Assembly: GCA_030668565.1 (NCBI GenBank) | Contig: DAOVFD010000001.1 | Location: 1-43,541, forward strand | DNA from: Candidatus Micrarchaeota archaeon | GTDB lineage: Archaea; Micrarchaeota; Micrarchaeia; Anstonellales; Bilamarchaeaceae | Direction: 5' to 3' | DNA length: 43,541 bases | Shown here: in pieces, positions 8,524 through 27,736 of the stretch | Layout: each line of letters opens with the position of its first letter | How positions within the stretch are numbered: position 1 is the stretch's first letter | Position numbers and translations under genes: made by a program | The notes under the pieces: model-generated | The model's database searches: none | What the model was told of the DNA's origin: nothing | The model's input: only the letters and a program-made list of their open reading frames with translations

Positions 8524-9116
8524 CTGGTCATCCTCTTTACCGTAAGAACCCCCTTTTCAGTCCTGAAGAATTCATAGTCTACAGATAAATATAGTTTCTC
8601 GAGCTGGTCGCCCGCTTCCTTGATATAATCAACAACGCTTCCCTTGGGGATATCTTCTGAGAGATATGCTATGGAATAATCATAATTCGCAGCCTGTCCT
8701 GCAACCTCCCTTTGCTCGAGGAGGATTCTTCTTATCCCTCTCCCTTCATACATCAGGAGAACAGCCGGGTCCTCCATGTAAATTGCATTGTGTTCGCCAC
8801 CAACAATTGCCCTTTTCTCAGGGTCGTAACTTGCCGGCCATCCCAGACCCACACCTATGAGCATTCTGTTTACATAGCACCCGAAACTGAGCCCGTATCC
8901 GATTATCTTCTTTACCTCCACTTCAGTTACATCGAAGGCACATTTTCTCATTATTTTCACTACATCTTCAATGTCTTCTTCATCAAGTTTTTTTACCTCC
9001 ACCTGGTCCTCATCGAGGAGGTTGATGAATTCTTTCTTCTTCTCCTCTTTCTCTTTGGGCTCGGCAAATTTTTTCTCTTCTTTCGTATCCACTTTCTTGG
9101 CAAATCCCTGCTCCAT
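8520..9116 (-). CDS. GNAT-like acetyltransferase (tentative)
   Basis: 198 aa. K/E-rich N-terminus, then a fold-sized region with a motif-A-like segment (LLMYEGRGIRRILLEQ). ATGA overlap with the downstream gene. Confidence 0.45.
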   Translation of the reverse strand: MEQGFAKKVDTKEEKKFAEPKEKEEKKKEFINLLDEDQVEVKKLDEEDIEDVVKIMRKCAFDVTEVEVKKIIGYGLSFGCYVNRMLIGVGLGWPASYDPEKRAIVGGEHNAIYMEDPAVLLMYEGRGIRRILLEQREVAGQAANYDYSIAYLSEDIPKGSVVDYIKEAGDQLEKLYLSVDYEFFRTEKGVLTVKRMTR

Positions 9117-9452: not shown

Positions 9453-12400
9453 TCAACTCGGAATGAATTCGCAGTTCACATCATAGTTTCTCATTGGAAC
9501 CACTTCAATACCGCAGAAACCCCCGCTTGTGATATCCGACATCCCCATGCCACAGCTTGCCCCCTCATCACCGTTCTTCGGAAAGACAACGGGAACCGTT
9601 CTCATACCAGCAAAAACACGTTTGGTATAGGAATAAAAACTTCCGTCCGCTCCCTGGAGGCAGCAGCGATTGGGTTTTTCCAAACCGCCAACAACATCCA
9701 TATATAGATTGCTGGAAATATCAGAGGAATCAAAACTAACCTCTTCAACCGTTCCATTATGATAATGATATTCACATTTGAATGTTCCAGGTGTTGCATT
9801 GCAAAGCTCACAGGGCTCAACAACCATTCCATCCAGGCATTTTGCATCTCCTTCAGCAAGACCTTCTGGAAGAGTGCACAATGCACCATTTTCACATATC
9901 ATATTACATTTTCCTGTTACTCTGTCATATGTCGAGCATCTTGTACAGTTTACTGATTCAACCGCATCCACTTTCGTGTATATCACTGTGGGGGCAGGAT
10001 TTGCAAATGCATCCATTCCCTTCTGAACACTGCAGAAATATTCACCTTTCTCTCCCACACCTACCCCATCAATAGATACTATACCCTCTCCTCCTACTGG
10101 CGTTTCCCCTCTCACCGGCATCCATATAATTCCCATTATTCCTGAATCACCAAGCTCGGCCTGATTGTCTGCAAGCTCCCTCAAAACCCCCTCAATCTTG
10201 TCGCCCGTCCAGTATGCGCTGTCCGCATTCGTGTAGAAATCAAGAACAAGAGATGGTTTTTGTGCAAGTTGAAGTGTGCTTCTACCCCTTCTTGAAAGAT
10301 GCCCCACTACATCCTCTTCAAGCGTTTCATCCGAGTAATAACCTTTATATTTGACAACCTGGGGGGAATAATCAAATGCAACTATGTCAACATCCTTTCG
10401 CAACCTTGGGTCAGAAAATAATGATATGATTGTTTCGTTGAACCTCTCATCTGTGAATGCTGCCACATCAGTCTTAAGCCGCACTGCAGTCATGCATCTC
10501 CAGCAATGGGTTCGTATTATTGCCGCCCTTTCTGATATTTCATCAAGTCTTTCCTGCGGCACTGGTACCCAGTGAGATGCATGGATAGTATCAACAATTA
10601 CGATAGTTGCTCCCATATCCCCGAATAATCTCTCGAAATCATATTCATTATAAAGCTCATCCGGGTCATCAGGCCTTGTCTTGTCCCAGTTGCTGTCATC
10701 AGTCATATCAATAACAGGGAGAACACCTGATTTCATATAATTGCCAAGTCTTTCCTTCATGAGTGACGCTTCCGGCTGTGTTCGTGCAGCTCCGGTTACT
10801 GAAACAATTGCACCATCGTAATCATCTATATCGGTTATATGCGGAGCTGTGCATTTAAAATCGTGCCAGACCACGAACCCAAGGCCCGACCGCTCCAATT
10901 CATATACGCAATCGCATATATCTTCCTCGCTCCCCTCAATAAATGGCCATTTTGCTTCTTCCATCGGTATATAAGCCCAGTCGCTGGCAGTTATATTTTG
11001 ATATGCAAGCGTTGATATCGTGCATGGCTCGCACCATCCATACTGCTTCAATGATGGGAGACCGGTTGCCCTGTCATACTCACAACTCACTAGAGTATCC
11101 CCCTCAGGTTCAAAGAAAAGAGTTATTGTTTTTGGGTACATAAGAAAATACGTCCTATAAGCATTGGTATCACTATTACCCGAAGGGGAATGAGTAACAA
11201 GTTCACTAGCGCTAGTTCCATCCGCATTTGCTTCTGGTAAATCAAGAAGATTTCTCTCTTTTAGCTTTTGTGCAGCCACAGAACTGATTGTGTACTTATC
11301 ATTGCTCCATCCCTCTCTTTTATAAGCAAGCACCCAGGGCATTGATGATATTATGAGCTCCCCATCATCGATTGTACCACCACCATCTCCCATCTCGGTT
11401 GCAATCTCATCCATCCTTTTTTCGAACATCGGGGCAAATGCGTCCATAAGCTTCTGCCAATTTTCGCCGCTTGGCTCACCAATTACAACAGTTTCCCCGG
11501 GACTTCCCCAACGTAAATTACATCCTTCGGAGAGTAACGTAAACCGGTAATCCCCAAAAGTATACCCAATTACTGTTTTTTCATTCCACTTTATCTCATC
11601 CTCCGGTCTCTTGCTTTTTCCAAAGAAAACAAAACCACCCACGGGAGGATACGCGCTCCCTTCAAGCACGGGACATGGTGCAGTATCAGTTTCGTCGTTT
11701 TCACCATAAAATTCTTTACATTCCTTTTTTGCTTTCTCCACTATATTTATGCTGGCTGGCATTCTTTCAATTTCAAAGCTAGGACCGACCACCTCCTCGG
11801 TTATAACATAATCCAGCACATTGGTGTTGTCCTTACAGCGGCAATATTTCTTTAACGTGGATGGAAGACCCCTTTCGAGTCTTCCGCTAAAATCACACCA
11901 TTCAGTTCTAAGCTCACATCTGTGGTCGCCGCCCATGTCACTGCAGTCGCCAACACAACCAAGCGCCCACTCATCGTGCACGCTGCAATCCGTCAGCTCC
12001 GGCTCGTCTTTCTCCATTATATCCTGCTGGTCATAAGGATCGACTTCTATTTTTATCTTTGCCATGTTCACTATAACAGAAGCGTAGCTAAAGGGGTCGC
12101 TAGCATCTGGATTGATATTTACGGTTGGTGCACATACCTCAATCGTTTTTCCGCCAGGTGTTCCATAGGCATTGCAATCCGCTGCAAGCTCCTCAGTTAC
12201 CTCACCAATTTTTCTTAGATTCGTTGCACGGGAATAAAAGTCAAATGAGCAGCTGCCTGAATAACATTCCAGAGGCCCTGCACATTCAAAGGGTGCCCTC
12301 TCCGCGGTGTCGTAAATCATTTCAAGATGGGACCAGTAAAGCCATTTCCTGTAATATTCTCTGTCAAGCTTTCTGTATGGTTCACTTTCAACGCGTTCTT

Positions 12401-13298
12401 CTGAACAAGTTCCGGAAAACATCGAACCCCGAGGAGTGTGAATAACATCTGCTTCGCCCGAGTAGAGGAGCTTGTAATACTGCGTAAACTTATATTCGTA
12501 CTTCTCTGTATGAACCGGCCCGGCGGGTGTTTCTAGTAATGCATCATGCCCGAACCGGAATGGTGGTTCAGGAGCGAGTGAATCAAGGTCCATGCATTCT
12601 CCGATATCTGATGGGTCATAAGGATGTTTATCGCTGATAAATCCGCCAAGATAGTTCATGTACCTGTCTACCTTATCACCGCCTAGACTGGGCCCCATGT
12701 TTACGTTGCAGTACTTATCGGAAATTGGAAAGTAATAACGATAGTTATCATACTCATCAAAAGAGCCGCCTACACCAATGCGGAAAACATTTATCGAAGA
12801 TTTTGTATTTTTCATTATGGATGCAAGCTTGAGGTCCATTGGAAAGAACCTGCACTGTGCCTTATAGAATCCAAGCGTCTCCTCTTCCTCTTCAGATTCT
12901 GGTGGAACCTCAACCTTGGCACTGACAGTATCACCACTGCTCGTATCAATAACACCAGGCGCAACCTTTGGCTTAAACATAAAGTCTCCACAGACCATTG
13001 CAGTGCAATCCGGATCAATACAATCATTCAATTCATTATCAGTGCATATCGGAACAAGATGGTATTTTCCGCCTATTGAAACATTGCAGTATCCCTTTGT
13101 TACATTGCACCACTCCGTATCCTTCTTGTACTCTTCCATAAGCCTGCTCGTAGTCATGTTGAGCAGAACACATTTTCCGTCTTCTAATGTCGCATTCGCC
13201 TTCTGACAGCAGCCGAGCTTTACTATCGGCTCTACGCAACCAAAGGCAAGGAGCAAAGCCATCGAAACAAACAATACAAGATATTTTTTCATTTTCAT
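9453..13298 (-). CDS. Giant (1281 aa) cysteine-rich exported protein, unknown function
   Basis: N-terminal signal peptide ending in a lipobox-like LLAFGC. No further TM. Many Cys in close pairs and many N-x-S/T sequons. Start lies 1 nt after the stop of the upstream paralogue gene. Confidence 0.8.
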   Translation of the reverse strand: MKMKKYLVLFVSMALLLAFGCVEPIVKLGCCQKANATLEDGKCVLLNMTTSRLMEEYKKDTEWCNVTKGYCNVSIGGKYHLVPICTDNELNDCIDPDCTAMVCGDFMFKPKVAPGVIDTSSGDTVSAKVEVPPESEEEEETLGFYKAQCRFFPMDLKLASIMKNTKSSINVFRIGVGGSFDEYDNYRYYFPISDKYCNVNMGPSLGGDKVDRYMNYLGGFISDKHPYDPSDIGECMDLDSLAPEPPFRFGHDALLETPAGPVHTEKYEYKFTQYYKLLYSGEADVIHTPRGSMFSGTCSEERVESEPYRKLDREYYRKWLYWSHLEMIYDTAERAPFECAGPLECYSGSCSFDFYSRATNLRKIGEVTEELAADCNAYGTPGGKTIEVCAPTVNINPDASDPFSYASVIVNMAKIKIEVDPYDQQDIMEKDEPELTDCSVHDEWALGCVGDCSDMGGDHRCELRTEWCDFSGRLERGLPSTLKKYCRCKDNTNVLDYVITEEVVGPSFEIERMPASINIVEKAKKECKEFYGENDETDTAPCPVLEGSAYPPVGGFVFFGKSKRPEDEIKWNEKTVIGYTFGDYRFTLLSEGCNLRWGSPGETVVIGEPSGENWQKLMDAFAPMFEKRMDEIATEMGDGGGTIDDGELIISSMPWVLAYKREGWSNDKYTISSVAAQKLKERNLLDLPEANADGTSASELVTHSPSGNSDTNAYRTYFLMYPKTITLFFEPEGDTLVSCEYDRATGLPSLKQYGWCEPCTISTLAYQNITASDWAYIPMEEAKWPFIEGSEEDICDCVYELERSGLGFVVWHDFKCTAPHITDIDDYDGAIVSVTGAARTQPEASLMKERLGNYMKSGVLPVIDMTDDSNWDKTRPDDPDELYNEYDFERLFGDMGATIVIVDTIHASHWVPVPQERLDEISERAAIIRTHCWRCMTAVRLKTDVAAFTDERFNETIISLFSDPRLRKDVDIVAFDYSPQVVKYKGYYSDETLEEDVVGHLSRRGRSTLQLAQKPSLVLDFYTNADSAYWTGDKIEGVLRELADNQAELGDSGIMGIIWMPVRGETPVGGEGIVSIDGVGVGEKGEYFCSVQKGMDAFANPAPTVIYTKVDAVESVNCTRCSTYDRVTGKCNMICENGALCTLPEGLAEGDAKCLDGMVVEPCELCNATPGTFKCEYHYHNGTVEEVSFDSSDISSNLYMDVVGGLEKPNRCCLQGADGSFYSYTKRVFAGMRTVPVVFPKNGDEGASCGMGMSDITSGGFCGIEVVPMRNYDVNCEFIPS

Positions 13299-13299
13299 A

Positions 13300-14316
13300 T
13301 CATATCACTTTTGTAACCATTTTCATAAGCGCAGCGGTGTCGCCTCCTAGAATAGCTACTATGTACCTAACAAATATCAGCGTGATGAATAGCGAAACGA
13401 GTGGGTGTATTATAAGGGAAACATACGTCCGGGAAAGCGCGTTGGCAAGATTGCTCATCGAAAGCGCTGACATGCCGGTTGCCGCACCCGATACCTCCAT
13501 GGTATTGAATATCGTTGTTGCAAAACCCATCGTTGGATAACAATATTGGTTTGGTGATGGTGGAGGGGAAGGTGGGAGAGTGGTTGGAACAAAACCCGGG
13601 TCCAAAAGAACGAAAATTACCGGAAAGATGAAATAAAGCCCTACTGCAAGTCCGATGAAAATCGCACCTGGTCCCCTTGTGAACTTGAAACTCCGTAAAA
13701 TTATCCCCAACGGAAGGAAGATATTGAGCATATTTGCCTTGATATAGAGCAGAAGATACGACTGCGCATTGAGTGAAACAAGAAGAGATGTTGCGAGATT
13801 ATTTACTATCCTTGTACTTTCAGCTTTCTCATAAAGGGATCCAATCCAGTTTCCTTTGAAGAATGTTATCCCAAAAGCGCCCAGGTCGAGATTAAGGCCG
13901 GTGAAAAGAGCCCAGGTTTTCGCTCCTGTGCAAATATTATCCTGAACAGCGGCTATCTGTTTTGCCTTTTCCTGTATACTGCATATTCTTATCGCGTCAA
14001 TCGCATCATCAACAGAATGTATAGGCATAGGGCTCTCTCCACATGCCAAGTCACCGGTAATAAGCCCACTGGAAAATGTCATTGCACCATTAATAATGCC
14101 TATCAGAAAAATTGCCATCAATGCGGTTGCTGCGGCCTGAAGAAGTTCTGACTTTGCCTCGCGTTCAAGGTCCCTGAGCCCGAACGCACGCGCAATCATC
14201 AGGAATGCATTGTAGAATATTACAACTGTAAGAACGGCAAGTAGGGTGATTGGTAGCCAATGGCTGGACCACGCATCGAGAAATGAAGATATCAATAGAG
14301 GAAAAATCATATTCAC
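13300..14316 (-). CDS. Polytopic membrane protein, paralogue P6 of the six-gene family
   Basis: 338 aa. Shares the three family signatures (EREAKSELLQA; LPLGIILRSFKFTRGPGAIFIG; C-terminal LGGDTAALMKMVTKVI). Start is GTG 14316 or ATG 14310. Confidence 0.8.
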   Translation of the reverse strand: MNMIFPLLISSFLDAWSSHWLPITLLAVLTVVIFYNAFLMIARAFGLRDLEREAKSELLQAAATALMAIFLIGIINGAMTFSSGLITGDLACGESPMPIHSVDDAIDAIRICSIQEKAKQIAAVQDNICTGAKTWALFTGLNLDLGAFGITFFKGNWIGSLYEKAESTRIVNNLATSLLVSLNAQSYLLLYIKANMLNIFLPLGIILRSFKFTRGPGAIFIGLAVGLYFIFPVIFVLLDPGFVPTTLPPSPPPSPNQYCYPTMGFATTIFNTMEVSGAATGMSALSMSNLANALSRTYVSLIIHPLVSLFITLIFVRYIVAILGGDTAALMKMVTKVI

Positions 14317-15371
14317 ACCATTTGCATTATTCTACTTAAATCTACCTCCTCACCATAGAGTCTTGCAAGATACACTACTGATGCTACCGCAGCAAGCATT
14401 GCTAGTGAAGGCAGGAAAAACCCCACCACAAATGCCATTCCTCCGAAAGCTATTGCCTCCGCAGGTTTTTCGCCATTTGGGAAATAATAGACGTCTTTTA
14501 CAAAATCCGCACCATAGGTAGCTGAGCCAAGCGTTGCGCCCACACCCGCAACATGCTCCGGATAGGTATCCTCATCAAGGAAATTAGATAGCGAGGGGTC
14601 CGGAAGATAGTCAGGCTTGTTGAATATCGAATCCCCCATAAGGTTGAAGGTTGCAAGGAAGAGGGGATAGATAATCGAAAAGGAAATCGCTATTGATATA
14701 AGGACTGAACCAAATGAACGCATATACGGCATTGAACGCATAAAGATGCCTATCGGGAAAAGGAAAAACGCGAATCCTTTATAGATATAGAGCAGAATCA
14801 TAAGATAGTTCAGCGACATAAGATAGGACATGAGGGTTGAGTTAAATATCGTATTAAGGGCCGCATTCAGTGCAGCATATCCACCAAATGGCTGAGTCTG
14901 TGTTCCTGAAAAACCAAACCAGCATCCCCACCCTGTATGGTCCATACTATACGCACATTTAAATGCTCCCATACAACCCAGAACAGTATAACCCTCAAGG
15001 TGATAACGCACTACAGTAAGCGCATTATGACTATATCTCGCTGCACTGACAAGATAATCCTCTGCAGCATCAAACATTGAGGATGGACCGGAATAGGTTA
15101 TCTCAAAAATATCTGCGATATTATGCATATCAATCGAACAGAAAAAGCCAAATAAGGAGCTGAGCAGGAGCAATGAAACAAAGGAAATGAAAAGCTGAAC
15201 CACTTCTGTTTTTGCCCATACCGTTACCTTCGGATTTCTTATTGCCTGGCCTACCATAAATGAAACGGCAATTATAATTGCGGTAATTATACCGGCATAA
15301 GCTGCAAGTGGGAATATTGTGGATGTGAGGAAATCCATAAATTCCGGGGAGCATACTGTTGCCACTACCAT
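14313..15371 (-). CDS. Polytopic membrane protein, paralogue P5
   Basis: 352 aa. Signatures TVWAKTEVVQL, FPIGIFMRSMPYMRSFGSVLIS, C-terminal YGEEVDLSRIMQMV. TAATG overlap with P4. Confidence 0.8.
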   Translation of the reverse strand: MVVATVCSPEFMDFLTSTIFPLAAYAGIITAIIIAVSFMVGQAIRNPKVTVWAKTEVVQLFISFVSLLLLSSLFGFFCSIDMHNIADIFEITYSGPSSMFDAAEDYLVSAARYSHNALTVVRYHLEGYTVLGCMGAFKCAYSMDHTGWGCWFGFSGTQTQPFGGYAALNAALNTIFNSTLMSYLMSLNYLMILLYIYKGFAFFLFPIGIFMRSMPYMRSFGSVLISIAISFSIIYPLFLATFNLMGDSIFNKPDYLPDPSLSNFLDEDTYPEHVAGVGATLGSATYGADFVKDVYYFPNGEKPAEAIAFGGMAFVVGFFLPSLAMLAAVASVVYLARLYGEEVDLSRIMQMV

Positions 15372-16348
15372 TATACAAACCTCGTAATTGCGCTCACATC
15401 AACCTCAGCACCAAAGAGGCCTGAGAGCGCTTTCAGTCCCCCTGCAAAGAGGAGAAGCGCAACCGCCGGGCCTAGAGTCGCCTTCAGCAGGATAATATAA
15501 AGGTATTTCTTAAGGTTCGCTCTTAAATTTCCATAGGCATCCACCGCCTTATCGCTATTGCTTCCAAAAGCTGTTTCACAAGGGTCGCACTTCTTAACAT
15601 CTATTCCTCCTGGATTAGAATACTCATCTCTATAACCAGCTCCTTCGTCTGACATAAATTGCTCATTTAGCATATCAACAAAAATAATTCCTGCAGGCAT
15701 GAGTATATAAGCGGAAATCCCGAATGCTATGAGAAAGCCGCCTGCTCCCCTGCTGAACCTGAATGTCCTTAAGATGATGCCAAGCGGGAGAAACAGCACA
15801 AGGGCAAAATCTTTTGTCAGTGTTATGATTTTCTTGGCTGACGCCACCTCGGCAATCGCATAACCTACTATGGAGCCTGACATTGAAAAGGGAGTACTAA
15901 GCATAGGGAATCCCCCACATGCGCTTACAGAATATCCCCCACCAGTAAGTTGGCAACTACACCCCTTCGACGCTTCTATAGCAATGCTGTTATCTGTACC
16001 GGATATTGTGTTAAGACACTTAGAAAGATTCTGATAGGTATCATCAAGACTTACTATTGCCGCATCCTGTATTGTTGGCTGACCCTGGGTAAGTGCACTG
16101 CTTTGGGAAATTGCATCTAGTATGCCATCTGTTCCAAGCAGTATAACCATAAGCAGTGCAAGAACTATAAGCTGGTAGAATTCATCCTTTGAAAGCGCCT
16201 TCAGTGTTTCGTTTTCAATTCCCATACCTACTGCGAAAACCGCTGCCAGCAGTGTCATAGATATTATTATTGCCATTGCTGCCACTGACTGCCATGATGC
16301 AAACGCAAGCGGAATCAACAACAGCAATACAAGCAATATCTTTTTCAT
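15371..16348 (-). CDS. Polytopic membrane protein, paralogue P4
   Basis: 325 aa. Signal peptide MKKILLVLLLLIPLAFA. Signatures KALSKDEFYQL, LPLGIILRTFRFSRGAGGFLIA, C-terminal FGAEVDVSAITRFV. Confidence 0.8.
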   Translation of the reverse strand: MKKILLVLLLLIPLAFASWQSVAAMAIIISMTLLAAVFAVGMGIENETLKALSKDEFYQLIVLALLMVILLGTDGILDAISQSSALTQGQPTIQDAAIVSLDDTYQNLSKCLNTISGTDNSIAIEASKGCSCQLTGGGYSVSACGGFPMLSTPFSMSGSIVGYAIAEVASAKKIITLTKDFALVLFLPLGIILRTFRFSRGAGGFLIAFGISAYILMPAGIIFVDMLNEQFMSDEGAGYRDEYSNPGGIDVKKCDPCETAFGSNSDKAVDAYGNLRANLKKYLYIILLKATLGPAVALLLFAGGLKALSGLFGAEVDVSAITRFV

Positions 16349-16356
16349 TCCAACAC

Positions 16357-18432
16357 CTAAAACAATTTCGAAATTCCGGGTATCTCTATATCTCCTCCTA
16401 TCATTCCTGAAAGCGTTTTTATGAACACAAGCGTTACAACTATATTGAAGAGCGGCAGCAAATAGGCAGGTATCATCATTTTTGAAACATTCTTTATCTC
16501 GGACATTCCAACAAGCCCTTCCTCATTTATCTTCATATAATCCCCCGGACTGCTCATCGGCACTTTATTCTTCGGTTTGCACAGGTCACCGCATTCCATA
16601 TTAATCGGGGGGTCATACTGATAAGATTCAGGGGTAAGAATACACTCTTCACATGCGCTTCTTGGCGGATAGAGCTTGTAATCAGCAGGACACTCATCCT
16701 TGGAACAACCTTCACTTGTTAATTCCTCTGGAAGGTGAGCTCCAAGAATTCTTTTTTCAGCAGGGCAAGCAGTGCAATTTGGGGGTTGTGGATCAAGCGC
16801 TTTAATATCATCAATATCGAGCTTGCAGGTATCCGGACATTTGTCACACGCACCAAGAAGCCCGCCGGTTTCACTATCAAAACAACCAGATGCAAAATTG
16901 CTTTCGTCACCGCCCTTTATCCTGCAATAGGAAGGACAGCCCACACAAAGATTATCACAAGAACCTGTTTCAGGCATAACCCAGACGCATGATTCCTCTG
17001 CATTAAGGCTTGCAGGACAATCACTTGCAAACTTATTGCATCGTTCGCTTCCCTCCACACGCTCATCAACAGAGGGCCTCCACTGGAATGGCGGGTCATC
17101 GTACGCTTCAGACTTCTTTGCAACCCTGCAGTCAAGCCTTGACTCAAGACATTTTCCAAAGCCGCTACAATCGGATTTCAATGGAGGGATTATCTTGCAT
17201 TCCTTAGGACACTCTTCGTATTCAGGTGCTTCTGTTCCGCCAGGAACATAACGTATGACCTTGCAACGTTTGTCGAGTTTTGCGCATGCTGTCTGGTTAG
17301 CAGGGTCAGCACATGCAGGAACCGAATTCGGGTATGGAAGTTCCCTACACGCACGTGGACAACCTACTCCATCACTTGGGTTTTCATCGTAATCGCATGA
17401 AAATACTTCTATCCCGCTTGCATTTATCGCGCTTTCCAGCGTTCCGTTCACCAGCTTCTTGGCTTTATTCTTTTCTGCTTCATCTGTCCCAAATACATCG
17501 TATACATCGTTCGGGTCTTCCAGCAGGACACCCTCCCCTCCAACAGTATAATACGCAAGCGGCGAGGCAATTATACATTCCGGCGGGCAAAGAAACTGGT
17601 CACCGACTATGGCATTATCCCCTTCAATCATCATATCAAGAGTTGCCCAGTCAAAAAAATACATTGCAGGGAAGAAGAACATTACGCCTGCAGCTATCGC
17701 TATCAGTAAACCTCCGGTTTTTCTTGTTATGAAGAATGACCGGCCCACTATTCCCAGTGCAAGAATAACAGGACCCACCTTAAAAGCAAATTGCTCTATG
17801 AAGAATTTTTGCGAATAGAGGGAAGAAAGTACTCCTGTATAATATCCAAATACTATGCTGTAGCGGTCGACATCAAGCACTTTATATGCTGCAAGCGGAA
17901 AGGTCAAACTTATCTGACCGACCTTTATGGATGTCCCGTAAATTCCTACACTACGCCCAGCCCACGCGCTTGCCTTCATGTTATTTTTTACAGTATCTTT
18001 AATACTTATCTCGGCAGCCGAAATATAATCATCCAGATATGCTATTGATACGGTCTTAAGACAATTATCACCTATATCACAATGAAGGCCTCCAGGCGCG
18101 GCGTCGTTGATGATGAGCATGCTGAGTGTATCAATGAACCCTATAGCCACAAAAAGAAAGACTATGAGAACAGCATTTGAGAATACCTGCCTCAACTCGG
18201 TTCCTGCCCATGCCTGCAGCTCGGGCATTTCAAGACCCTTGCCTATTGCGTATGCAATTGCAACCAGTATCGTTGATATCATCAGTGCAGCTACTGCAAG
18301 CAACTGCCAGCTCTGCACAAGTTCGAGTGAAACCTTGCCAGTCTGTTCTTCGATAAGTTCTGTTGTATTCTGCGAGAATGAAAGTGCTGCAAGAGCAATG
18401 AAAACAAAGATTAACAATGGAATCTTTTTCAT
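16357..18432 (-). CDS. Polytopic membrane protein, paralogue P3, with ~340-aa cysteine-rich insertion
   Basis: 691 aa. Signal peptide MKKIPLLIFVFIALAALSFS. Signatures QAWAGTELRQV, PVILALGIVGRSFFITRKTGGLLIA, C-terminal IGGDIEIPGISKLF. There are 32 Cys between residues 282 and 618. Confidence 0.8.
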   Translation of the reverse strand: MKKIPLLIFVFIALAALSFSQNTTELIEEQTGKVSLELVQSWQLLAVAALMISTILVAIAYAIGKGLEMPELQAWAGTELRQVFSNAVLIVFLFVAIGFIDTLSMLIINDAAPGGLHCDIGDNCLKTVSIAYLDDYISAAEISIKDTVKNNMKASAWAGRSVGIYGTSIKVGQISLTFPLAAYKVLDVDRYSIVFGYYTGVLSSLYSQKFFIEQFAFKVGPVILALGIVGRSFFITRKTGGLLIAIAAGVMFFFPAMYFFDWATLDMMIEGDNAIVGDQFLCPPECIIASPLAYYTVGGEGVLLEDPNDVYDVFGTDEAEKNKAKKLVNGTLESAINASGIEVFSCDYDENPSDGVGCPRACRELPYPNSVPACADPANQTACAKLDKRCKVIRYVPGGTEAPEYEECPKECKIIPPLKSDCSGFGKCLESRLDCRVAKKSEAYDDPPFQWRPSVDERVEGSERCNKFASDCPASLNAEESCVWVMPETGSCDNLCVGCPSYCRIKGGDESNFASGCFDSETGGLLGACDKCPDTCKLDIDDIKALDPQPPNCTACPAEKRILGAHLPEELTSEGCSKDECPADYKLYPPRSACEECILTPESYQYDPPINMECGDLCKPKNKVPMSSPGDYMKINEEGLVGMSEIKNVSKMMIPAYLLPLFNIVVTLVFIKTLSGMIGGDIEIPGISKLF

Positions 18433-18434
18433 AT

Positions 18435-19400
18435 CTATCCAATCACCCTTAATGCCTTATTTGCTCCGGCAAGGAATGTTATAAGCAATGCTATCGTCAG
18501 GTTTGGGAGGAAGAATGCCTGGGGCATAAGCCTTGCCACATTCCAGAAACTACCCTGGTTTTCCCAGCCACCAAACCACCTGTCTGTTATTATTCCCCTG
18601 TAGTGATAACATTCATCATCGCCGATTACATCATACATCGCGAGATTGAACGTGTACATAAAAGGCACTATGATGTAAAGTCCGACAGAGAGAGCGATTA
18701 GCATATTTCCCATTCCCCTTGTAGGAATAAAAATCCTTAATATGAAAGCTGTGGGTAGTAGCCAGTATATCACATTATCGCTTATGAATCCCAAGAATAA
18801 CTCTTGTATATTCAGGCTCAGGAGTGCAGGAAAGACAAATGTGTTCAGGGTTGTGTCGTACTGATTTGCTACGACACGTCTCCATGCTCCACCTGCTGAT
18901 GTAAAGGAGTTGAGCAGTGGTATTGAAATCGTAGCCGACCATGTGGAATGCATGAGCTTGTCGATATAGTTATCCATATAATTTTCCGACATCCTCTGCG
19001 CATCACTCTTTGCTATATTAAGATAGCAGAGTGAAACCCCAGTCATAGTAGCACTTTCGCTATAGCATCCTGAAGGGGTTTCAAGCTTTTCAAGCGTTGT
19101 TTTGTAGAACATATCGATTGCAGTGCATGAAAAAAGCAGAAGAGTACTAAAACCAATCAGAAGCGCAATTGAGAAACAGAGGTGCCATGCTTCGTCCTTT
19201 GCAAATACTATAAATCTTGTATTTCCGGTGGATGAACCAATTACATACGCTATTGCAATAATAAGGGTGGTTAATATCAAGACAGCCCATATTAGTATCC
19301 CCTGCTCGGAGAGAATTACATCAGTGGCGTTATCGATACAGTCAATAGAATGGGCAAGCGGAAGCAACAGCAACAACGCAATCAAAAATGAAAATCTCAT
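18435..19400 (-). CDS. Polytopic membrane protein, paralogue P2
   Basis: ORF track starts at 19430. The ATG at 19400 gives a clean signal peptide (MRFSFLIALLLLLPLAHS) and an ATGA overlap with the P1 stop. Signatures VFAKDEAWHL and LPTAFILRIFIPTRGMGNMLIA; C-terminal tail divergent. Confidence 0.75.
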   Translation of the reverse strand: MRFSFLIALLLLLPLAHSIDCIDNATDVILSEQGILIWAVLILTTLIIAIAYVIGSSTGNTRFIVFAKDEAWHLCFSIALLIGFSTLLLFSCTAIDMFYKTTLEKLETPSGCYSESATMTGVSLCYLNIAKSDAQRMSENYMDNYIDKLMHSTWSATISIPLLNSFTSAGGAWRRVVANQYDTTLNTFVFPALLSLNIQELFLGFISDNVIYWLLPTAFILRIFIPTRGMGNMLIALSVGLYIIVPFMYTFNLAMYDVIGDDECYHYRGIITDRWFGGWENQGSFWNVARLMPQAFFLPNLTIALLITFLAGANKALRVIG

Positions 19401-20638
19401 ATCAACCTCTCCACACCCGCCATATACCATTCCCCGCCAAGGGCTGTTGAAATGGATTTCGCCCCGGATATGGTTATAATCGCTATCACTACAAAGTCGA
19501 TATAGCCGACAAGTATAACATTGTTGACATTTTGCAGGAACGGCATGAGGATATCAAAAACCCTCTCCGGCCATAACCCATATCCGAAACCGCCCGTAGC
19601 ACCAATGTTCATTTCAGCCCATTGGAGCCATGTGAGAGTAAGCACTGTCTGGACTATTTTTATAACCTGCATTATTACTGGATAAATCACTTCTGATGTG
19701 AGCTCGAAGCACGCTGGAAAAGCAGCAGCACCATAACCAGTAAGCAAAAGCCAGCCACAGCAAACAAAACCAAATCCATACTCGGTTATAGCGAGGAGAA
19801 ATCGGTTTGGTAAAAACGAACAAAACATAGAACCAAAATCCATTGACCACGAATGCGGATCAAGCCGAAACATATCCGAATCCGATATCGTAACATTAGG
19901 ATAATCAATAAGCTGCTTATTGACCTCACCAACTATTATAACGGAAAACGGAAGAAGAACTATCGCAGCAAGGGAAACGGCAATAAGTGTGTTCCCGATA
20001 CGCCGCGTAAATGGAATAAGGCGTATTGCAAATGCAAGTGGAAGAATAATAGTCGGGACAGTAGCATGAAAAAATTTAATCAAAAGGCTAAGACCTTCAT
20101 AAAGAAATATTACATTTGTCAATCCCTGGGTCGCACTCCCAAGTGCCATGAGAAAGATTGACGCACCAGAAAGGGGTGAAGCAGAGTAGGTTATGTAGAA
20201 ATACCAAGCGGGAATTCCAACGTACGGAGAATACGTTGCACCCACCCTTATCTTTGTTGCAACACGAATTATGTTTTCATAGGCAGTATCGTAACCGCTT
20301 GTTTTACTCTCAAGCATATTGTCTATTACACCTATCGACGCATCGATATAGGTCGCTTCCTCTTCCCCCATCAGTACTGCGCTCATCTGCTCTGCTGATA
20401 TGAAAAGCGAAAAAATTATTATTACAAGAAGAACCCCTGCCACGAATTCCCTAAATTCGCTTTTTGTCCATGCCATTAATTGGGGACTCGAAAGCGCATT
20501 GGAGAACATGAACATTATTGCGAGGAATATTACTACTATTATGGCAACCATCGGCACGGCGAACATTAGATTTATTGGCGCTGCAAACGCAATGCCAAAA
20601 AGAAGCAGAAAAATGAAGGTAACGTGCATTAAGCGCAT
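19397..20638 (-). CDS. Polytopic membrane protein, paralogue P1
   Basis: 413 aa. Signatures MAWTKSEFREF, LPLAFAIRLIPFTRRIGNTLIA, C-terminal LGGEWYMAGVERLI. Multiple hydrophobic helices. Confidence 0.8.
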   Translation of the reverse strand: MRLMHVTFIFLLLFGIAFAAPINLMFAVPMVAIIVVIFLAIMFMFSNALSSPQLMAWTKSEFREFVAGVLLVIIIFSLFISAEQMSAVLMGEEEATYIDASIGVIDNMLESKTSGYDTAYENIIRVATKIRVGATYSPYVGIPAWYFYITYSASPLSGASIFLMALGSATQGLTNVIFLYEGLSLLIKFFHATVPTIILPLAFAIRLIPFTRRIGNTLIAVSLAAIVLLPFSVIIVGEVNKQLIDYPNVTISDSDMFRLDPHSWSMDFGSMFCSFLPNRFLLAITEYGFGFVCCGWLLLTGYGAAAFPACFELTSEVIYPVIMQVIKIVQTVLTLTWLQWAEMNIGATGGFGYGLWPERVFDILMPFLQNVNNVILVGYIDFVVIAIITISGAKSISTALGGEWYMAGVERLI

Positions 20639-20686: not shown

Positions 20687-21526
20687 TCACTTGAAAGTAA
20701 AGGTTAAACCCCCCATTACGGTGGTTTCCTCAATAGCAGTTATATTATAGTTATAAACCGAAAGATTGGCTGAAAGGTTTTGGGTTATATCTACTTCCAG
20801 ATCTCCATGCAATCCAAATGCAACCTCTTCTTTATAGACAATGAGCTGTGGACCTGCTTCAACACTGAAAATTTCACCTTCTGCAGCAACATTAAGAGAA
20901 AATTCACCATAGCCTGCCCCTTCAGTATCAAGGCCCCCTCCTGCAGCCGGTCCGATAGACACTATTTCGCTGACACCAAAATATACTGACACGTCACCGG
21001 CAACTGCTGTTCCTGTAAGCGGGTCGCGGTAAATTTCTACATAAACCGTTTCGTCTATTGCCAATACAGCACTTCCTGCAAAATCTGTCTTTTCAGGAGT
21101 TATTACCAAAGTCGCTTCCAATTCAGCACTCACTCTTTCCCCTTCTATCGTTTCGCTGACAGATATGGTAGCTGCAGGCGCTTTTTCGGCTACTCCTCCT
21201 GCGCCTTTGATTTGTGTTGCTGCTTCTATTTCCGGCTTTTCCTCTATCTCTTCTACTTCGGGTTTTTCTTCCGGAGCCTTAAGTGTTTTCTCGATTTCTT
21301 CTGCCAGTTCAGGGTCCTTTTCTTTTACAGCATCTACAAGAGCTTGGGAAAATGGAATCTCATTGCTCATTCTTTCTGCCACGTTATCAGTCAGCTCGGA
21401 TAAGTCAGTAAATCTTTCCTCGATTATTACTTTTACTTCCTGGGGAAGTGCCTGTATTTCTGCCGCAGCTTTTTCCTTGTGCGTTTCTGGCATGCATAAA
21501 GTTAGTAAGGAAGAAGTTTTAAACAT
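20687..21526 (-). CDS. Acidic protein with beta-rich C-terminal half, unknown function (first gene of the block)
   Basis: 279-aa ORF with no signal peptide or TM. E/K-rich N-terminal half; C-terminal half has alternating hydrophobic/G-rich strands ending GGLTFTFK. Alternative start at Met12 (21493). Confidence 0.6.
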   Translation of the reverse strand: MFKTSSLLTLCMPETHKEKAAAEIQALPQEVKVIIEERFTDLSELTDNVAERMSNEIPFSQALVDAVKEKDPELAEEIEKTLKAPEEKPEVEEIEEKPEIEAATQIKGAGGVAEKAPAATISVSETIEGERVSAELEATLVITPEKTDFAGSAVLAIDETVYVEIYRDPLTGTAVAGDVSVYFGVSEIVSIGPAAGGGLDTEGAGYGEFSLNVAAEGEIFSVEAGPQLIVYKEEVAFGLHGDLEVDITQNLSANLSVYNYNITAIEETTVMGGLTFTFK

Positions 21527-21544
21527 TAAGAGGAAAATCGAGGT

Positions 21545-22012
21545 GTGGAGCTCACAAAAAAAGAGTCTTATGCCATCCAGATAGGCTATTATCTCAAAAA
21601 CGGAGAGTACCCAAAAGCATGTGAACTGGCGGAAGATATGTTAAAAAGATTCCCTAAAGAGCCGCTTTCCCATTTTATGGCTGCAAGATCGTACTATTTT
21701 TCGAGCAGGTATCAGGAAGCAAGAACAGAGGGAAGGAAAGCATACGGTCTATCTAATACCAGGCAGGACATGATGATGAGTGCTATCGTCACTGCAAGTT
21801 CCCTCTTCATGCTGAAAAAATATGATGAAGGCCACAAGATGCTGCTGCCGTTTGAAAAAGAGAATAATGAAGACGTGAAAAAGCTTCTTGTTATATTCTA
21901 TATGGTGAAGGGCAGGGGAAAGAAAGCCGGAGAGTATTATAAGGAATTATACGACCTCAATATGGCAGTGGCCAAAAAATTCATAAAACAGCTGGCAGAG
22001 GGGCAAACATAA
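21545..22012 (+). CDS. TPR-like helical repeat protein
   Basis: 155 aa with a GTG start. Helix-pair repeats of TPR character (YYLKNGEYPKACELAEDMLKRFPKEPLSHFMAARSYYFSSRYQEA). Confidence 0.5.
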   Translation: MELTKKESYAIQIGYYLKNGEYPKACELAEDMLKRFPKEPLSHFMAARSYYFSSRYQEARTEGRKAYGLSNTRQDMMMSAIVTASSLFMLKKYDEGHKMLLPFEKENNEDVKKLLVIFYMVKGRGKKAGEYYKELYDLNMAVAKKFIKQLAEGQT

Positions 22013-22043: not shown

Positions 22044-25000
22044 ATGAACAAAAAGATAATAATTATGAGTATGCTGCTACTTTTGGCATTTTCTGTTGCT
22101 TTTGCCGCATATGAAGGGGAAGAATGCATAATATGCGATTTGATGATAGACGAGCCACAATCGAATATGTTGCTCACGGAGGATAAAACAGCCGAAACAT
22201 ATGGGATTAAACTTTATTATGAAAATTATAGTAATACCCCTTCGAGAACATCTATAGAAAACAGTATGTTGTTTGTGTATGTTGTTCCTGCCGAGGGTGA
22301 GAAGGAACTCCTCAGGATATATACAAATGAGGACGGCGAGGCGCTCTTTGATTTTTCTGAATATGCTGCAATAGCGCAGGAGGAACAGATTACATATTTA
22401 TTTACTATAATATACTGTCCCTTCTGCCATCCTAGCGACCCGGGGTATCCTTGTGGTTTTGACGAATGTGTGGAATATACGGGAATAGAGGTTCCACCAG
22501 GGATAACAGGACCTGACCCAATAAGCCTTATTCCGCTTGCAGAGGGGGTAACCGAGCCGACTACCGAAGAACTGAACACGCGCCATTTCCTTCCATCATC
22601 AGTAAGCACGACGCATGTTCCTCCGCCCCAGCCCGAATCACGGGTGCCTGCATTCTGTCTTCCTCTCATACTGATATTCGCACTGCTTGGCGGTGCATTA
22701 TATTATACAGGAAGGAATCCTTTTGCTGCATTTTCCCTGGGTACGCCCCGCGCTGGTATTGGCGGAAGACACATAAAATACACGCCAGGTGGTCGCGGTC
22801 TGAGCCTAAGCGGAAGTTATATTGCACAGCAAATGGCCGGTGCTGTTAGAGAAGGAAAAGCCATGAAAGCATATAGAAAAGCAAAGAAAGCGGGGGATAA
22901 AGAAGGAATGAAAGAAGCTGCTAAGGGTTTAGTTAAACCTGCATCATGGAAGAACACCCTAAGTTTTGGGCTACATGGGGCGATTTTTGGTGAAAAAGGA
23001 GGAAAAGCAGTAGCAGGCGCAAAAGGAGGAGTAACTGAATCAAGAGGCGGTATTGTCGGTTTGATAAGAAGGGGGAAGAAGATGAGAGGGGAGAGGAGAA
23101 TAAAGACAAAAACCGCCAAATCTTTTACAACCCCTTCTGGAAGAAAGGCATTAGGCCTCGAAGGCGGAGCAAAGGGAAGGTTAAAAGGCTGGGCAAAGAC
23201 AACCGGAGAAGCAATGACTCACGTACTTGGCGGATTGCTTAGCAAGTCATTTCTGTCATGTTTTGGATTGCAAGGGGTTGCTGAGAGGATGCAGAAATAC
23301 GTTATAAACAAGAACGCAACTGCGACTGCAAGGGGCGATGCAGAAAGCGCGGTCGCAGCGGAGGACCAGCAAAGGATTGTCAATAAACTGAGCAAGCTGG
23401 TACAAGAGAAGAAGGCAACTGAAATTACAGTTAGCGGAAAAACATTTTACGAAATGAAAGAGAAAGGACACACAACAAGAATCGATAAAGAAGCATGGCA
23501 GAAAGGTGACCTAAAAGCGACAGAGACTTTTTCGCGGGGCGGAGTTGCAATTGAGAGAAGTTATTCCGGAGGGTACGCGCTTAACGAACAAACAGGCGAG
23601 ATGGAATTCACTACTCCAAAATTAGATACTGTGTCATACACAAAGGAAATCGACGGCAAGCCAATTACAGTAACTTATGGTATTGAAGCTCGCGATGTAC
23701 CCTCATTTGCAGGCGTTGAAGCAATGGTTCCTGCAGAAGACCATCTAAAGATTATAGGAGTAAGCGGGGCTGAAGAGATTAAACAAGGAACGGAAGCATT
23801 TCAGAAGGTGTCAGATTTTGCAGAGAAATATAATGGAAAGCCGATATCTGCGGATGTTGTTGCTAAAACCTTCGCTGGGATGGGCATCGAAAAGGGTGTT
23901 ACAATTAGTAGTATGACCAATGATTTGGGGGCCGCGCAACAAAAGCTTGATTACGCAGCAAATAATGTAGTTGAAACACAGAAAACCATCTCTCTACGTA
24001 CATATAACAAAACGAATCCGGAATTTAACGACGCTACTAAAAAGATTGAAACGAAATCAAACGATGTTATTGTTGATACTGGTAAGAAGGCATTAACGCT
24101 GATTGCAAATACACCGCCGGATGAAAGCACGGGAGGACATTTTGAGACCCAAGCAACCAGAGGGTGGTATAGGGAAGGCGGAGAAATTTTCTCGGAAAAA
24201 TACGAAAAACCGAGCGAGGCAAACGTACGCGGTACAGAAGCGATCTACAGCCTTGGAGTCACGGGACTGGCTACAATGACTAAAAAAGAAGCAATAAAAG
24301 CGGTTGAGACCCAATTAGATAAGAGTGGTGTAACAGGTGCAAGGAAAACAGAAGCAATTGCAACTGCGAAAGAAATATACAAAGATGCAAGAGGGAGTGC
24401 AGTAGCATGGAATAATGCTTCGACAGAAGCTGCTGTTACATATCATAAACTAAATGACATCACAGCAGATGCCTTAAAACCGCTCTATGAGAGGGGAATA
24501 AAAGAACCTGCAGTTAGTCCGGAAACGAAGTATGATATAACGCATACAACTGTAATCAGTGCAGTGAGCAGTCATTTAAGTGCACCCGAAGCAACACAAT
24601 ATAAAAGAGAAGAAATAGGTAAAGCAGTAATTGGTGCGGGGGGGACAACCTTTGCAAAAACACCTGAGCAAAAGTTCCTTGCTACATCGATAAGAGATGG
24701 ACTCTATAAAATGCCAAAGAAACCGGAAATGCCCGTATATGAAGGAGTAACCAAGCCTAAACCAGAACAAATGTTAGATGATTGGTACAAAAAATTAAAA
24801 ATCGAAGAACGCATAATTGTTGATGCTGACCTAGAACTCATGAAGAATAAAAAACGAGCTGAAGAACTGAAAAATAGGATGACCGTCTCTGACGCTGAGA
24901 TGAGAAAATGGAAAGATTGGGAAGCTAAGAAAAAAGATATTTTCTATGGAGATGGCCAGGCAACTGCAGCTGTAGCTTCGCTTACCGTTACCTCAGCAAT

Positions 25001-25205
25001 ACAGAAAGGGGTAAAACTTCCGAAAAGCGTGTATGATGATGCTCTAGTCGGTATTGGAACGCGGAACCCAGAAAGATGGAAAGATGCAGCAAATACTACA
25101 GCAAAAGAGATTACAAAATCAGCCAGAGAAAAAGAAGAGGAAGGTTATCAGCGAATGGTAAGCCAGGCAGAACGCTTAAAGAAGGAAAAGAAGAAGAGCG
25201 ATTAG
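22044..25205 (+). CDS. Giant (1053 aa) type-I membrane protein with long lysine-rich cytoplasmic region, unknown function
   Basis: Signal peptide (MNKKIIIMSMLLLLAFSVAFA). ~180-aa ectodomain with 6 Cys (CIIC, CPFC, C137, C142). Single TM (AFCLPLILIFALLGGALYY, ~res 203-222). ~830 aa G/K/A-rich, coiled-coil-like cytoplasmic part. Confidence 0.75.
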   Translation: MNKKIIIMSMLLLLAFSVAFAAYEGEECIICDLMIDEPQSNMLLTEDKTAETYGIKLYYENYSNTPSRTSIENSMLFVYVVPAEGEKELLRIYTNEDGEALFDFSEYAAIAQEEQITYLFTIIYCPFCHPSDPGYPCGFDECVEYTGIEVPPGITGPDPISLIPLAEGVTEPTTEELNTRHFLPSSVSTTHVPPPQPESRVPAFCLPLILIFALLGGALYYTGRNPFAAFSLGTPRAGIGGRHIKYTPGGRGLSLSGSYIAQQMAGAVREGKAMKAYRKAKKAGDKEGMKEAAKGLVKPASWKNTLSFGLHGAIFGEKGGKAVAGAKGGVTESRGGIVGLIRRGKKMRGERRIKTKTAKSFTTPSGRKALGLEGGAKGRLKGWAKTTGEAMTHVLGGLLSKSFLSCFGLQGVAERMQKYVINKNATATARGDAESAVAAEDQQRIVNKLSKLVQEKKATEITVSGKTFYEMKEKGHTTRIDKEAWQKGDLKATETFSRGGVAIERSYSGGYALNEQTGEMEFTTPKLDTVSYTKEIDGKPITVTYGIEARDVPSFAGVEAMVPAEDHLKIIGVSGAEEIKQGTEAFQKVSDFAEKYNGKPISADVVAKTFAGMGIEKGVTISSMTNDLGAAQQKLDYAANNVVETQKTISLRTYNKTNPEFNDATKKIETKSNDVIVDTGKKALTLIANTPPDESTGGHFETQATRGWYREGGEIFSEKYEKPSEANVRGTEAIYSLGVTGLATMTKKEAIKAVETQLDKSGVTGARKTEAIATAKEIYKDARGSAVAWNNASTEAAVTYHKLNDITADALKPLYERGIKEPAVSPETKYDITHTTVISAVSSHLSAPEATQYKREEIGKAVIGAGGTTFAKTPEQKFLATSIRDGLYKMPKKPEMPVYEGVTKPKPEQMLDDWYKKLKIEERIIVDADLELMKNKKRAEELKNRMTVSDAEMRKWKDWEAKKKDIFYGDGQATAAVASLTVTSAIQKGVKLPKSVYDDALVGIGTRNPERWKDAANTTAKEITKSAREKEEEGYQRMVSQAERLKKEKKKSD

Positions 25206-26544: not shown

Positions 26545-26580
26545 TTAGGCTAACAAATTATCTAGCCGTTGTTGGCCTAA
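26545..26580. repeat. 36-nt palindromic element, copy 1 (TTAGGCTAACAAATT-N11-GTTGGCCTAA)
   Basis: The first 15 nt are identical to 27560-27574. The last 10 nt match 27586-27595 at 9/10 at the same spacing. Arms are inverted repeats of each other. It overlaps the fic stop codon. Confidence 0.7.
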
Positions 26581-27610: not shown

Positions 27611-27736
27611 CGCCGAGGAGGAGATTTGAACTCCTAAGCCCTTACGGGCACCAGATCTCAAGTCCTCTTGAGAGAAGTGAACCGCAGTTCACCCGGATCT
27701 CAAGTCTGGCGCGTTACCGGATTCTGCCACCTCGGC
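27611..27736 (-). tRNA. tRNA-Ser: tRNA-Ser(UGA) with a 42-nt intron in the anticodon loop
   Basis: Acceptor stem GCCGAGG/CCTCGGC with discriminator G. Anticodon stem CCAGA/TCTGG and loop CTTGAGA (anticodon TGA). Long variable arm GCCC-GTAA-GGGC. T arm AGGAG-TTCAAAT-CTCCT. Intron ~27657-27698, register ambiguous because of an 11-nt repeat. No encoded CCA; mature length 84 nt. Confidence 0.85.

Follow-up and report, generated by a model that had tools for sequence, protein, structure and literature searches.

To our knowledge, how DPANN archaea attach to and take up material from their hosts is an open question for which no molecular parts are known. Against this background a stretch of 43,541 nucleotides (nt) from a Candidatus Micrarchaeota archaeon (assembly GCA_030668565.1, contig DAOVFD010000001.1, positions 1-43,541; here called the window) raises the question of what is formed by six consecutive minus-strand genes for polytopic membrane proteins, called P1-P6 in the order of transcription. 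An earlier note, made from the DNA letters alone, described these proteins as a candidate membrane machine that it could not place in any characterised transporter or secretion family. The analysis reported here indicates, with a probability of roughly 65%, that P1-P6 are ancient paralogues that serve as the polytopic membrane subunit of a chromosomal, conjugation-like apparatus of Micrarchaeota, resembling type IV secretion systems (T4SS) and the archaeal Ced and Ted systems. The genes are as follows.

19397-20638, minus strand: P1, 413 amino acids (aa), VirB6/CedA-like paralogue 1; its C-terminal half has additional helices
18435-19400, minus strand: P2, ~321 aa; the longest open reading frame (ORF) extends to 19430 and gives 331 aa
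16357-18432, minus strand: P3, 691 aa, the common core plus a large Cys-rich insert
15371-16348, minus strand: P4, 325 aa, the paralogue with the weak CedA match and the best structural model
14313-15371, minus strand: P5, 352 aa, paralogue 5
13300-14316, minus strand: P6, 338 aa, GTG start, paralogue 6

An array of six paralogues in Micrarchaeota

All six ORFs are present and their products are mutually related. Within the six-sequence set phmmer found every pair significant (E 7e-14 to 2e-4), and in Smith-Waterman alignments 15 of the 15 pairs scored above all 200 shuffles (z = 5.4-14), in a control where local composition was kept in 15-residue windows to leave hydrophobic segments in place. 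The tandem paralogy described in the earlier note is thereby confirmed. The three signatures that it reported as common to the six proteins are also real, since each holds family-invariant residues. In the six-way alignment these are E61 of signature (i), R206, R212, G215 and P230 of signature (ii), and G401 of signature (iii), all in P1 numbering; P230 is the Pro that lies 10 residues past signature block (ii). In an alignment of 79 family sequences E56, P188, R194, R200, G203 and P218 (P4 numbering) are invariant and G313 is nearly so. The nucleotide ranges originally given for block (ii), listed below, translate as quoted, except that the range for P1 omits the leading Leu.

15725-15790, minus strand: signature block (ii) of P4, LPLGIILRTFRFSRGAGGFLIA; end of transmembrane (TM) helix 3, basic loop predicted to be cytoplasmic, start of TM4
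19979-20041, minus strand: signature block (ii) of P1
18693-18758, minus strand: signature block (ii) of P2
17698-17772, minus strand: signature block (ii) of P3
14694-14759, minus strand: signature block (ii) of P5
13651-13716, minus strand: signature block (ii) of P6

P2 is the most divergent of the six and has a short C-terminal tail. The ATG at 19400 forms an ATGA overlap with the P1 stop codon and opens a signal-peptide-like segment; this start, with the length of ~321 aa proposed before, is probably to be preferred over that of the longest ORF. The genes are tightly packed, with a 4-nt overlap at P1/P2, spacers of 2 nt at P2/P3 and 8 nt at P3/P4, overlaps of 1 nt at P4/P5 and 4 nt at P5/P6, and a 1-nt spacer between P6 and a downstream gene for a 1281-aa protein. 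Because neighbouring genes, from P1 through to the 1281-aa gene, either overlap by 1-4 nt or stand no more than 8 nt apart, P1-P6 and the 1281-aa gene look like a single translationally coupled operon. The window itself is ordinary chromosomal DNA, with genes for ELP3, PRPP synthase, FtsZ, SecY, ribosomal proteins, SerRS, SHMT and ScpB. An origin as a mobile element is without support, given this chromosomal setting and the empty searches of plasmid, phage and viral collections: tblastn gave 0 matches in 72,556 plasmids and 0 in 50,697 phage records, and the IMG/VR viral contigs held no relative of the family.

Homologues are numerous and narrowly distributed. A profile of the six proteins retrieved 2,875 cluster representatives at E <= 1e-3 and 1,925 at E <= 1e-10, and all named homologues are 'hypothetical proteins' of Micrarchaeota. 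P1 has ~90 orthologues with 27-67% identity, exclusively in Micrarchaeota. Scanning one genome per species yielded 80 loci, all from Micrarchaeota or unclassified archaeal metagenome-assembled genomes. Analysis of ORFs with hidden Markov models found exactly six family genes in the 50 loci in which the array lies wholly inside the fetched DNA; apparent five- and seven-copy loci proved to be artefacts of ORF calling. Each paralogue of the window has its own orthologue group, the score for the best class being ~5-30 times that for the second-best, and identity between paralogues is ~15-25%, as compared to the 27-67% between orthologues. In nearer clades the genes follow the order P1-P6, which the deepest clades keep in part, and size classes of ~400, 330, 700, 330, 355 and 340 aa recur among the loci.

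The constant number in the 50 loci, the separate orthologue groups, the recurring sizes and the gene order argue that the six-fold duplication is old and that copy number has been held fixed. The six-gene array is conserved across the whole Micrarchaeota phylum. Because exactly six copies occur in the complete loci and orthology is mostly one-to-one, a fixed hetero-oligomer is the best reading of the array and is favoured over redundancy. The preference for a hetero-oligomer expressed in the earlier note thus holds up well with these counts and the collinear gene order.

Probable relation to CedA, CedE and VirB6

Hydropathy analysis gave five TM helices per protein, with a signal-like segment ahead of them in P1-P4. 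The TM3-TM4 loop is strongly basic, and the TM2-TM3 and TM4-TM5 loops hold Cys. P3 carries between TM4 and TM5 a Cys-rich insert of ~380 aa that is predicted to be extracellular (34 Cys in the entire protein), and P3 orthologues reach 1100-1683 aa with ~80-120 Cys. The topology shown by this analysis has a predicted outer N-terminus, five TM helices and an inner C-terminus. Crossing parity places all three signature motifs, namely the K-x-E loop, the R-x5-R-x2-G loop and the G-x-E-x-D tail, on one face of the membrane, opposite the Cys-rich loops; on the basis of the positive-inside rule and the signal peptides this face would be the cytoplasmic one. AlphaFold2 models of P4 (predicted local distance difference test score, pLDDT, 91.4; predicted template-modelling score 0.83; about six long helices) and P1 (pLDDT 88.9) are all-helical, with very long helices reaching past the membrane and one beta-hairpin. 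The TM2-TM3 and TM4-TM5 loops would form a helical Cys-containing ectodomain, which is much enlarged in P3. In a Foldseek search of 350,542 PDB chains with the P4 model, the top match was 8rtd_L (probability 0.89, E = 0.079), a chain of the R388 stalk-arches-inner-membrane-complex entry which we take to be TrwI/VirB6.

The Ced and Ted systems are composed of a channel protein (CedA, CedE, TedA), a pilin (CedA1, TedC) and an ATPase (CedB, CedD, TedB). In archaea, VirB6 has the homologues CedA, CedE and TedA, of which CedE is a protein with five TM helices (PMC9905601, PMC11868833). Residues 146-232 of P4, corresponding to TM3-loop-TM4, match the NCBIfam model Ced_CedA with E = 0.001 and 18.7 bits. 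When family members were scanned singly, 14 of 79 matched CedA (best E 4.8e-5) and 4 of 79 matched CedE, and among 18,950 models no other was matched by more than one member. The likeness to CedA and CedE (NCBIfam NF041796 and NF053657) is remote but specific. Since the scores lie far below the equivalog cut-off, the P1-P6 family is judged not to consist of CedA orthologues.

Two further likenesses concern short segments. The pattern P-x7-[FWY]-x2-[ST] is found at the TM3-loop junction of 46 of 79 family members, versus ~17% by chance, and also in 105 of 121 TrwI homologues. Block (ii) contains it as P-x7-F-x2-[ST], a pattern that resembles the start of the 'conserved cytoplasmic loop' motif published for VirB6 (PMC10732058). 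A pilin-like profile aligns weakly with the TM1-loop-TM2 region of the family (P = 8e-4, probability 24%), which recalls the reported similarity of the CedA N-terminus to CedA1 (PMC9905601).

In relatives, genes for VirB2-like pilins and for ATPases adjoin the family in two operon types. Type B comprises eight loci of a sister Micrarchaeota clade (L050, L053, L056, L057, L059, L061, L062 and L067), including the complete genome CP058998 of Ca. Fermentimicrarchaeum limneticum. Here the order is two to three small two-helix proteins, the six-gene array, two ~275-aa TM proteins and a 512-aa ATPase. The small proteins match TrbC/VirB2 (1e-4) and T4SS_pilin (2.4e-4), and the PDB entry that their profile matches best is the R388 pilin TrwL (E 0.012). 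The ATPase has AAA_10, DUF87/HerA and P-loop_TraG domains, and its profile matches solved HerA-like and VirB4-like structures.

Type C comprises seven loci (L077-L079 and L081-L084) with one family member each (E 1e-29 to 1e-35), in which all three signatures are present. The genes, for example at 9046-15825 of L084, encode in this order a pilin-like protein, the single VirB6-like protein, a 236-aa TM protein, a 362-aa ATPase, proteins of 228 and 151 aa, and a 697-aa ATPase. The first of these is a small two-helix protein that matches T4SS_pilin, and the two HerA/VirB4-type ATPases match CedD (2e-12), CedB (1.7e-9), VirB4-like CD1110, TraC and TrbE. Type C represents a second, simpler T4SS/Ced-like operon of some Micrarchaeota.

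Most relatives are like the window in that the array is not adjacent to pilin or ATPase genes. An ATPase module (L087), encoding a 268-aa TM protein, a 523-aa ATPase and proteins of 123, 240 and 848 aa, lies ~390 kb from the window-type array L064, the two being taken as one contig of 1,027,568 bp. Each gene of this module has an orthologue among those that follow the array in the Fermentimicrarchaeum-type cluster, and neither a family member (channel subunit) nor a pilin gene stands beside the module. In the simplest reading, the window lineage would have one system that is split over two or more loci.

Several results weigh against placing P1-P6 with the T4SS channel proteins. The CedA and CedE scores are far under the curated cut-off (18.7 bits for P4 versus 330 bits for CedA). 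The six proteins and 79 relatives reached no Pfam threshold and gave nothing recurrent, and TrbL/VirB6 (PF04610) was left unmatched by all of them, in the case of the relatives even at E <= 1. Searches of PDB sequences with two family profiles found nothing. Comparison by hhalign of the 79-sequence alignment with one of TrwI and 120 homologues, whose diversity is low (effective number of sequences, Neff, 3.3), gave a probability of 0.8% over 28 columns. The structural line is weak as well. The template-modelling score (TM-score) of P4 with 8rtd_L, taken as TrwI, is just 0.29-0.33, and the VirB6 fold match is not replicated with the equally confident P1 model, which has TTYH channels first (E 0.02, TM-score 0.13-0.18) and 8rtd_L at rank 48 (E 0.9). 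Foldseek found no match below E 0.01 with either model, and their best matches differ. The likeness of P1 to TTYH channels was set aside, at these TM-scores, as a generic resemblance between 5-TM helical bundles. The pilin matches likewise fall below threshold, and no pilin or ATPase gene was detectable throughout the window, as the earlier note had already reported for the block of six genes. The array and the distant ATPase module were seen together in one genome only, joined by the identical length of 1,027,568 bp. Finally, the solved VirB6 is a homopentamer and not a hetero-hexamer (PMC9259494).

The placement as a T4SS channel subunit thus rests on convergence of four independent lines, namely the CedA/CedE signal, the single-copy operons with pilin and ATPase genes, the type B clusters and the weak fold line of P4, not on a single strong match. 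The view that the machine has no link to secretion systems is not supported, given the recurrent CedA/CedE matches and the pilin and ATPase operons of relatives. A confident profile match to VirB6/TrbL, which the earlier note had named as a result that would refute it, was not obtained; what was obtained is convergent remote and contextual evidence. The P1-P6 subunit is probably a remote homologue and counterpart of VirB6 and of CedA/CedE/TedA. Because the sequences do not support membership of the Pfam VirB6/TrbL family, the name that should be used is VirB6/CedA-like and not VirB6.

Neighbouring genes

The window holds further genes that accompany the array.

9453-13298, minus strand: 1281-aa Cys-rich protein, predicted to be secreted or lipid-anchored; 52 Cys, signal peptide and lipobox-like LAFGC
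22044-25205, plus strand: 1053-aa bitopic protein, second conserved partner
6024-9116, minus strand: three downstream neighbours (198-aa, 590-aa Lon_C-like and 278-aa proteins), conserved in nearer relatives
6751-8523, minus strand: 590-aa Lon_C (S16) protein; Lon_C match 2.2e-10, no ATPase domain

A homologue of the 1281-aa protein is encoded directly behind the sixth array gene in 55 related loci, and within the window lineage the protein is an obligate downstream partner. It has ~20 invariant Cys; its N- and C-terminal Cys-rich regions are conserved and residues ~400-520 poorly so. No Pfam match was found, also when 32 homologues were scanned, and profile searches gave no match in the PDB. 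Residues ~780-1110 show alternating strand and helix by eye alone and might form an alpha/beta barrel, a fold that no tool backs. The protein was considered as the Micrarchaeota surface-layer (S-layer) protein and rejected, as it lacks PF05123 and has 52 Cys; the criteria for S-layer proteins are a PF05123 domain and few sulfur-containing residues (10.1101/2021.04.28.441871).

The 1053-aa protein starts with a signal peptide and an acidic ectodomain of 170 aa. A TM helix (199-223) is followed by a basic segment rich in Gly and by a ~650-aa domain for which a cytoplasmic location is predicted. Homologues of the protein occur in 46 related loci, either divergent upstream of the array or on the same strand right after the 1281-aa gene, and are also found in deep, divergent clades that have no 1281-aa gene. 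Between P1 and the 1053-aa gene (20687-22012) lie genes for an acidic 279-aa protein (minus strand) and a 155-aa tetratricopeptide repeat protein (plus strand). The 279-aa protein has a homologue in none of the related loci examined, and the stretch looks like a lineage-specific insertion in the divergent promoter region.

Homologues of the 198-aa, 590-aa and 278-aa proteins are found in 35, 24 and 17 related loci, respectively, and their membership of the system is uncertain. In the 590-aa protein an N-terminal signal that contains a lipobox-like VSAC is combined with a TM helix at the C-terminal end and a basic tail; by these features it is probably an extracytoplasmic, membrane-anchored Lon-like protease. 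The suggestion that the array co-occurs with both the 1281-aa protein and this protease applies to the former; the protease is restricted to nearer relatives.

Some other genes were observed around the arrays. A Cdc48-like double-AAA ATPase without intein adjoins the 198-aa gene in several loci, which is probably just synteny; in L058 (2-3451, plus strand) such an ATPase is split by an intein with a LAGLIDADG domain. A Fic-domain protein is encoded near the cluster in the window (26558-27526, minus strand), and Fic genes are also near the array in L003, L004 and L052; this proximity probably reflects conserved synteny and not function. Rfam marks a tRNA of 126 nt at 27611-27736 (minus strand, 43.2 bits), in which an intron is probable, and ARAGORN reported no tRNA in the window. 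At 355-3606 (plus strand) a highly charged 1083-aa protein (185 K+R, 166 D+E) is encoded that has one hydrophobic segment and no Pfam match. It was considered as a homologue of the 848-aa protein of the L087 ATPase module and rejected as unrelated.

Proposed function, alternatives and related systems

If P1-P6 are T4SS-like channel subunits, the cytoplasmic membrane would contain a ring or platform of fixed hetero-oligomeric composition, built from one copy of each paralogue. Contacts between subunits, or a dock for a hexameric HerA/VirB4-like ATPase, would be provided by the conserved cytoplasmic motifs, and in the window lineage the ATPase module that serves the array would be encoded elsewhere in the genome. 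The variable, disulfide-rich outer domains would hold the co-translated 1281-aa protein and, where a filament is present, also the base of this VirB2-like filament. The complex may transfer macromolecules, DNA or protein, in a contact-dependent manner between the symbiont and another cell.

An unlikely alternative is that the array represents a T4SS-derived platform which in the window lineage has been repurposed and, without ATPase or pilus, now serves to export, anchor or display the 1281-aa protein along with the 1053-aa protein, as a structure for host attachment or docking on the surface of the symbiont. This would agree with the separation of the array from pilin and ATPase genes in most loci, with the 1-nt spacer that joins it to the 1281-aa gene and the 1053-aa gene alongside, with the large Cys-rich ectodomain of P3 (a domain that exceeds 1000 aa in relatives) and with the extracytoplasmic Lon-like protease that is often a neighbour. 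In addition, cryo-electron tomography of a cultivated micrarchaeon revealed a 21-nm barrel-like docking platform of unidentified composition (PMC11329633). However, the type B clade retains the six-gene array within a pilin-ATPase cluster, a window-type genome still has the orthologous ATPase module with no channel subunit beside it, and the searches with the 1281-aa protein gave no clue to its function.

A low probability is also given to the possibility that a ring of the six paralogues forms, with the 1281-aa and 1053-aa proteins, an envelope-spanning port for host docking and translocation through which cytoplasmic material is exchanged with hosts. The platform that receives host nanotubes in the micrarchaeon tomograms could be an example of such a port. 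If true, a conjugation-derived machine would have been rebuilt as a hetero-hexameric 'feeding' channel that underlies DPANN symbiosis.

It is improbable that P1-P6 form a membrane machine unrelated to type IV secretion, with the CedA/VirB6 likeness due to convergent features of helical membrane proteins. The empty Pfam, PDB-sequence and TrwI-profile comparisons, the Foldseek results, with their disagreement between P4 and P1, and the lack of homologues on plasmids, phages and viral contigs would fit this explanation, whereas chance fails to account for CedA and CedE as the sole recurrent matches and for the association of VirB2-like pilins and VirB4/CedB/CedD-like ATPases with the family in two independent operon types. 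Very improbable, finally, is that the six are redundant or alternative copies, i.e. interchangeable channel-subunit variants for antigenic or host-range variation as proposed for duplicated T4SS genes of some intracellular bacteria: tandem amplification of T4SS components is known, for example of pilin paralogues (PMC12102498), and the six differ greatly in their ectodomain loops, yet the number fixed at six over deep clades, the one-to-one orthology with collinear order and with paralogues far less alike than orthologues, the distinct conserved sizes and the translational coupling fit subfunctionalised subunits, not a variable repertoire.

Among known systems, Ced and Ted appear to be the closest functional, and probably evolutionary, relatives of the P1-P6 family placed here with the T4SS channel subunits. 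CedA and CedE are the only proteins repeatedly matched, the channel proteins have 5-7 TM helices, the gene order pilin, channel, HerA/VirB4-like ATPases matching the CedB/CedD models recurs in the Micrarchaeota relatives, and the genes are chromosomal and not plasmid-borne. Unlike in Ced and Ted, there are six fixed paralogues in place of one or two, all scoring far below the CedA equivalog cut-off; giant Cys-rich partners of 1281 and 1053 aa are present; and in the window lineage the channel genes are apart from pilin and ATPase genes. Furthermore, the organism is a DPANN symbiont and not a crenarchaeon, and the system is known from its genes, not from DNA import or UV induction.

VirB6 proteins are similar in having about five TM helices with the N-terminus out, the C-terminus in and a large outer loop, an arrangement also found by hydropathy in the six (for the VirB6 topology, see also PMC9259494). 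VirB6/TrbL, represented by TrwI of plasmid R388, spans the inner membrane several times, has long helices and is located at the base of pilus and stalk (PMC9259494). Further points of similarity are the first rank of 8rtd_L for the P4 model, on the assumption stated above, and a P-x7-[FW]-x2-T motif that occurs in both families (motif from PMC10732058) and in the six proteins lies at the junction of TM3 and the cytoplasmic loop. The differences are that the family shows no PF04610 match and no profile-profile similarity, that the fold match is weak and was not reproduced with P1, and that TrwI is homopentameric; the VirB6 homopentamer that has been solved supports VirB5 and serves to nucleate the pilus (PMC9259494).

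Multiplied channel subunits have their closest precedent in the rvh T4SS of Rickettsiales. These are also host-dependent organisms with reduced genomes, in which diverged rvhB6 paralogues have large insertions flanking the membrane core and T4SS genes are scattered among several loci (PMC10732058). In contrast to the Micrarchaeota array, the rvh system is a bacterial P-type T4SS with a full VirB scaffold, the number of rvhB6 copies varies from three to five, and the duplications are unrelated in sequence and of independent origin. The closest ecological parallel would be the chromosomal T4SS of Patescibacteria, also known as the candidate phyla radiation, which is conserved in ultra-small episymbionts (PMC12102498). 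In Ca. Southlakia epibionticum ML1, virB6, PrgI and a TrsD homologue are among the components reported to be essential (PMC12102498). Different from the array described here, the patescibacterial system is of the bacterial monoderm type, with recognisable VirB6/PrgH and no six-fold VirB6 expansion. Giant proteins with VirB4-like domains have been discussed for nanohaloarchaea (PMC10266531), and the literature searched contained no description of a comparable system in Micrarchaeota or other DPANN archaea.

The system is best described as a DPANN T4SS/Ced-like apparatus whose channel subunit would have multiplied to six fixed paralogues, coupled with giant surface proteins rich in Cys. All 80 Micrarchaeota loci retrieved carry a gene set that is chromosomal, stands amid housekeeping genes and looks like a rebuilt conjugation or Ced-type machine, composed of six fixed VirB6-like subunits, giant Cys-rich surface partners, VirB2-like pilins and HerA/VirB4-like ATPases. 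With this system the Ced/Ted family, the archaeal relatives of the T4SS, would reach into DPANN. The system has parallels in the T4SS that epibiotic growth of Patescibacteria is reported to require and in the VirB6 genes multiplied in Rickettsiales. If a channel of six fixed paralogues is real, it would be the first VirB6-type assembly that is hetero-oligomeric. In cultivated Micrarchaeota, the components of the system offer concrete targets that can be approached by proteomics, with antibodies and by sub-tomogram averaging.

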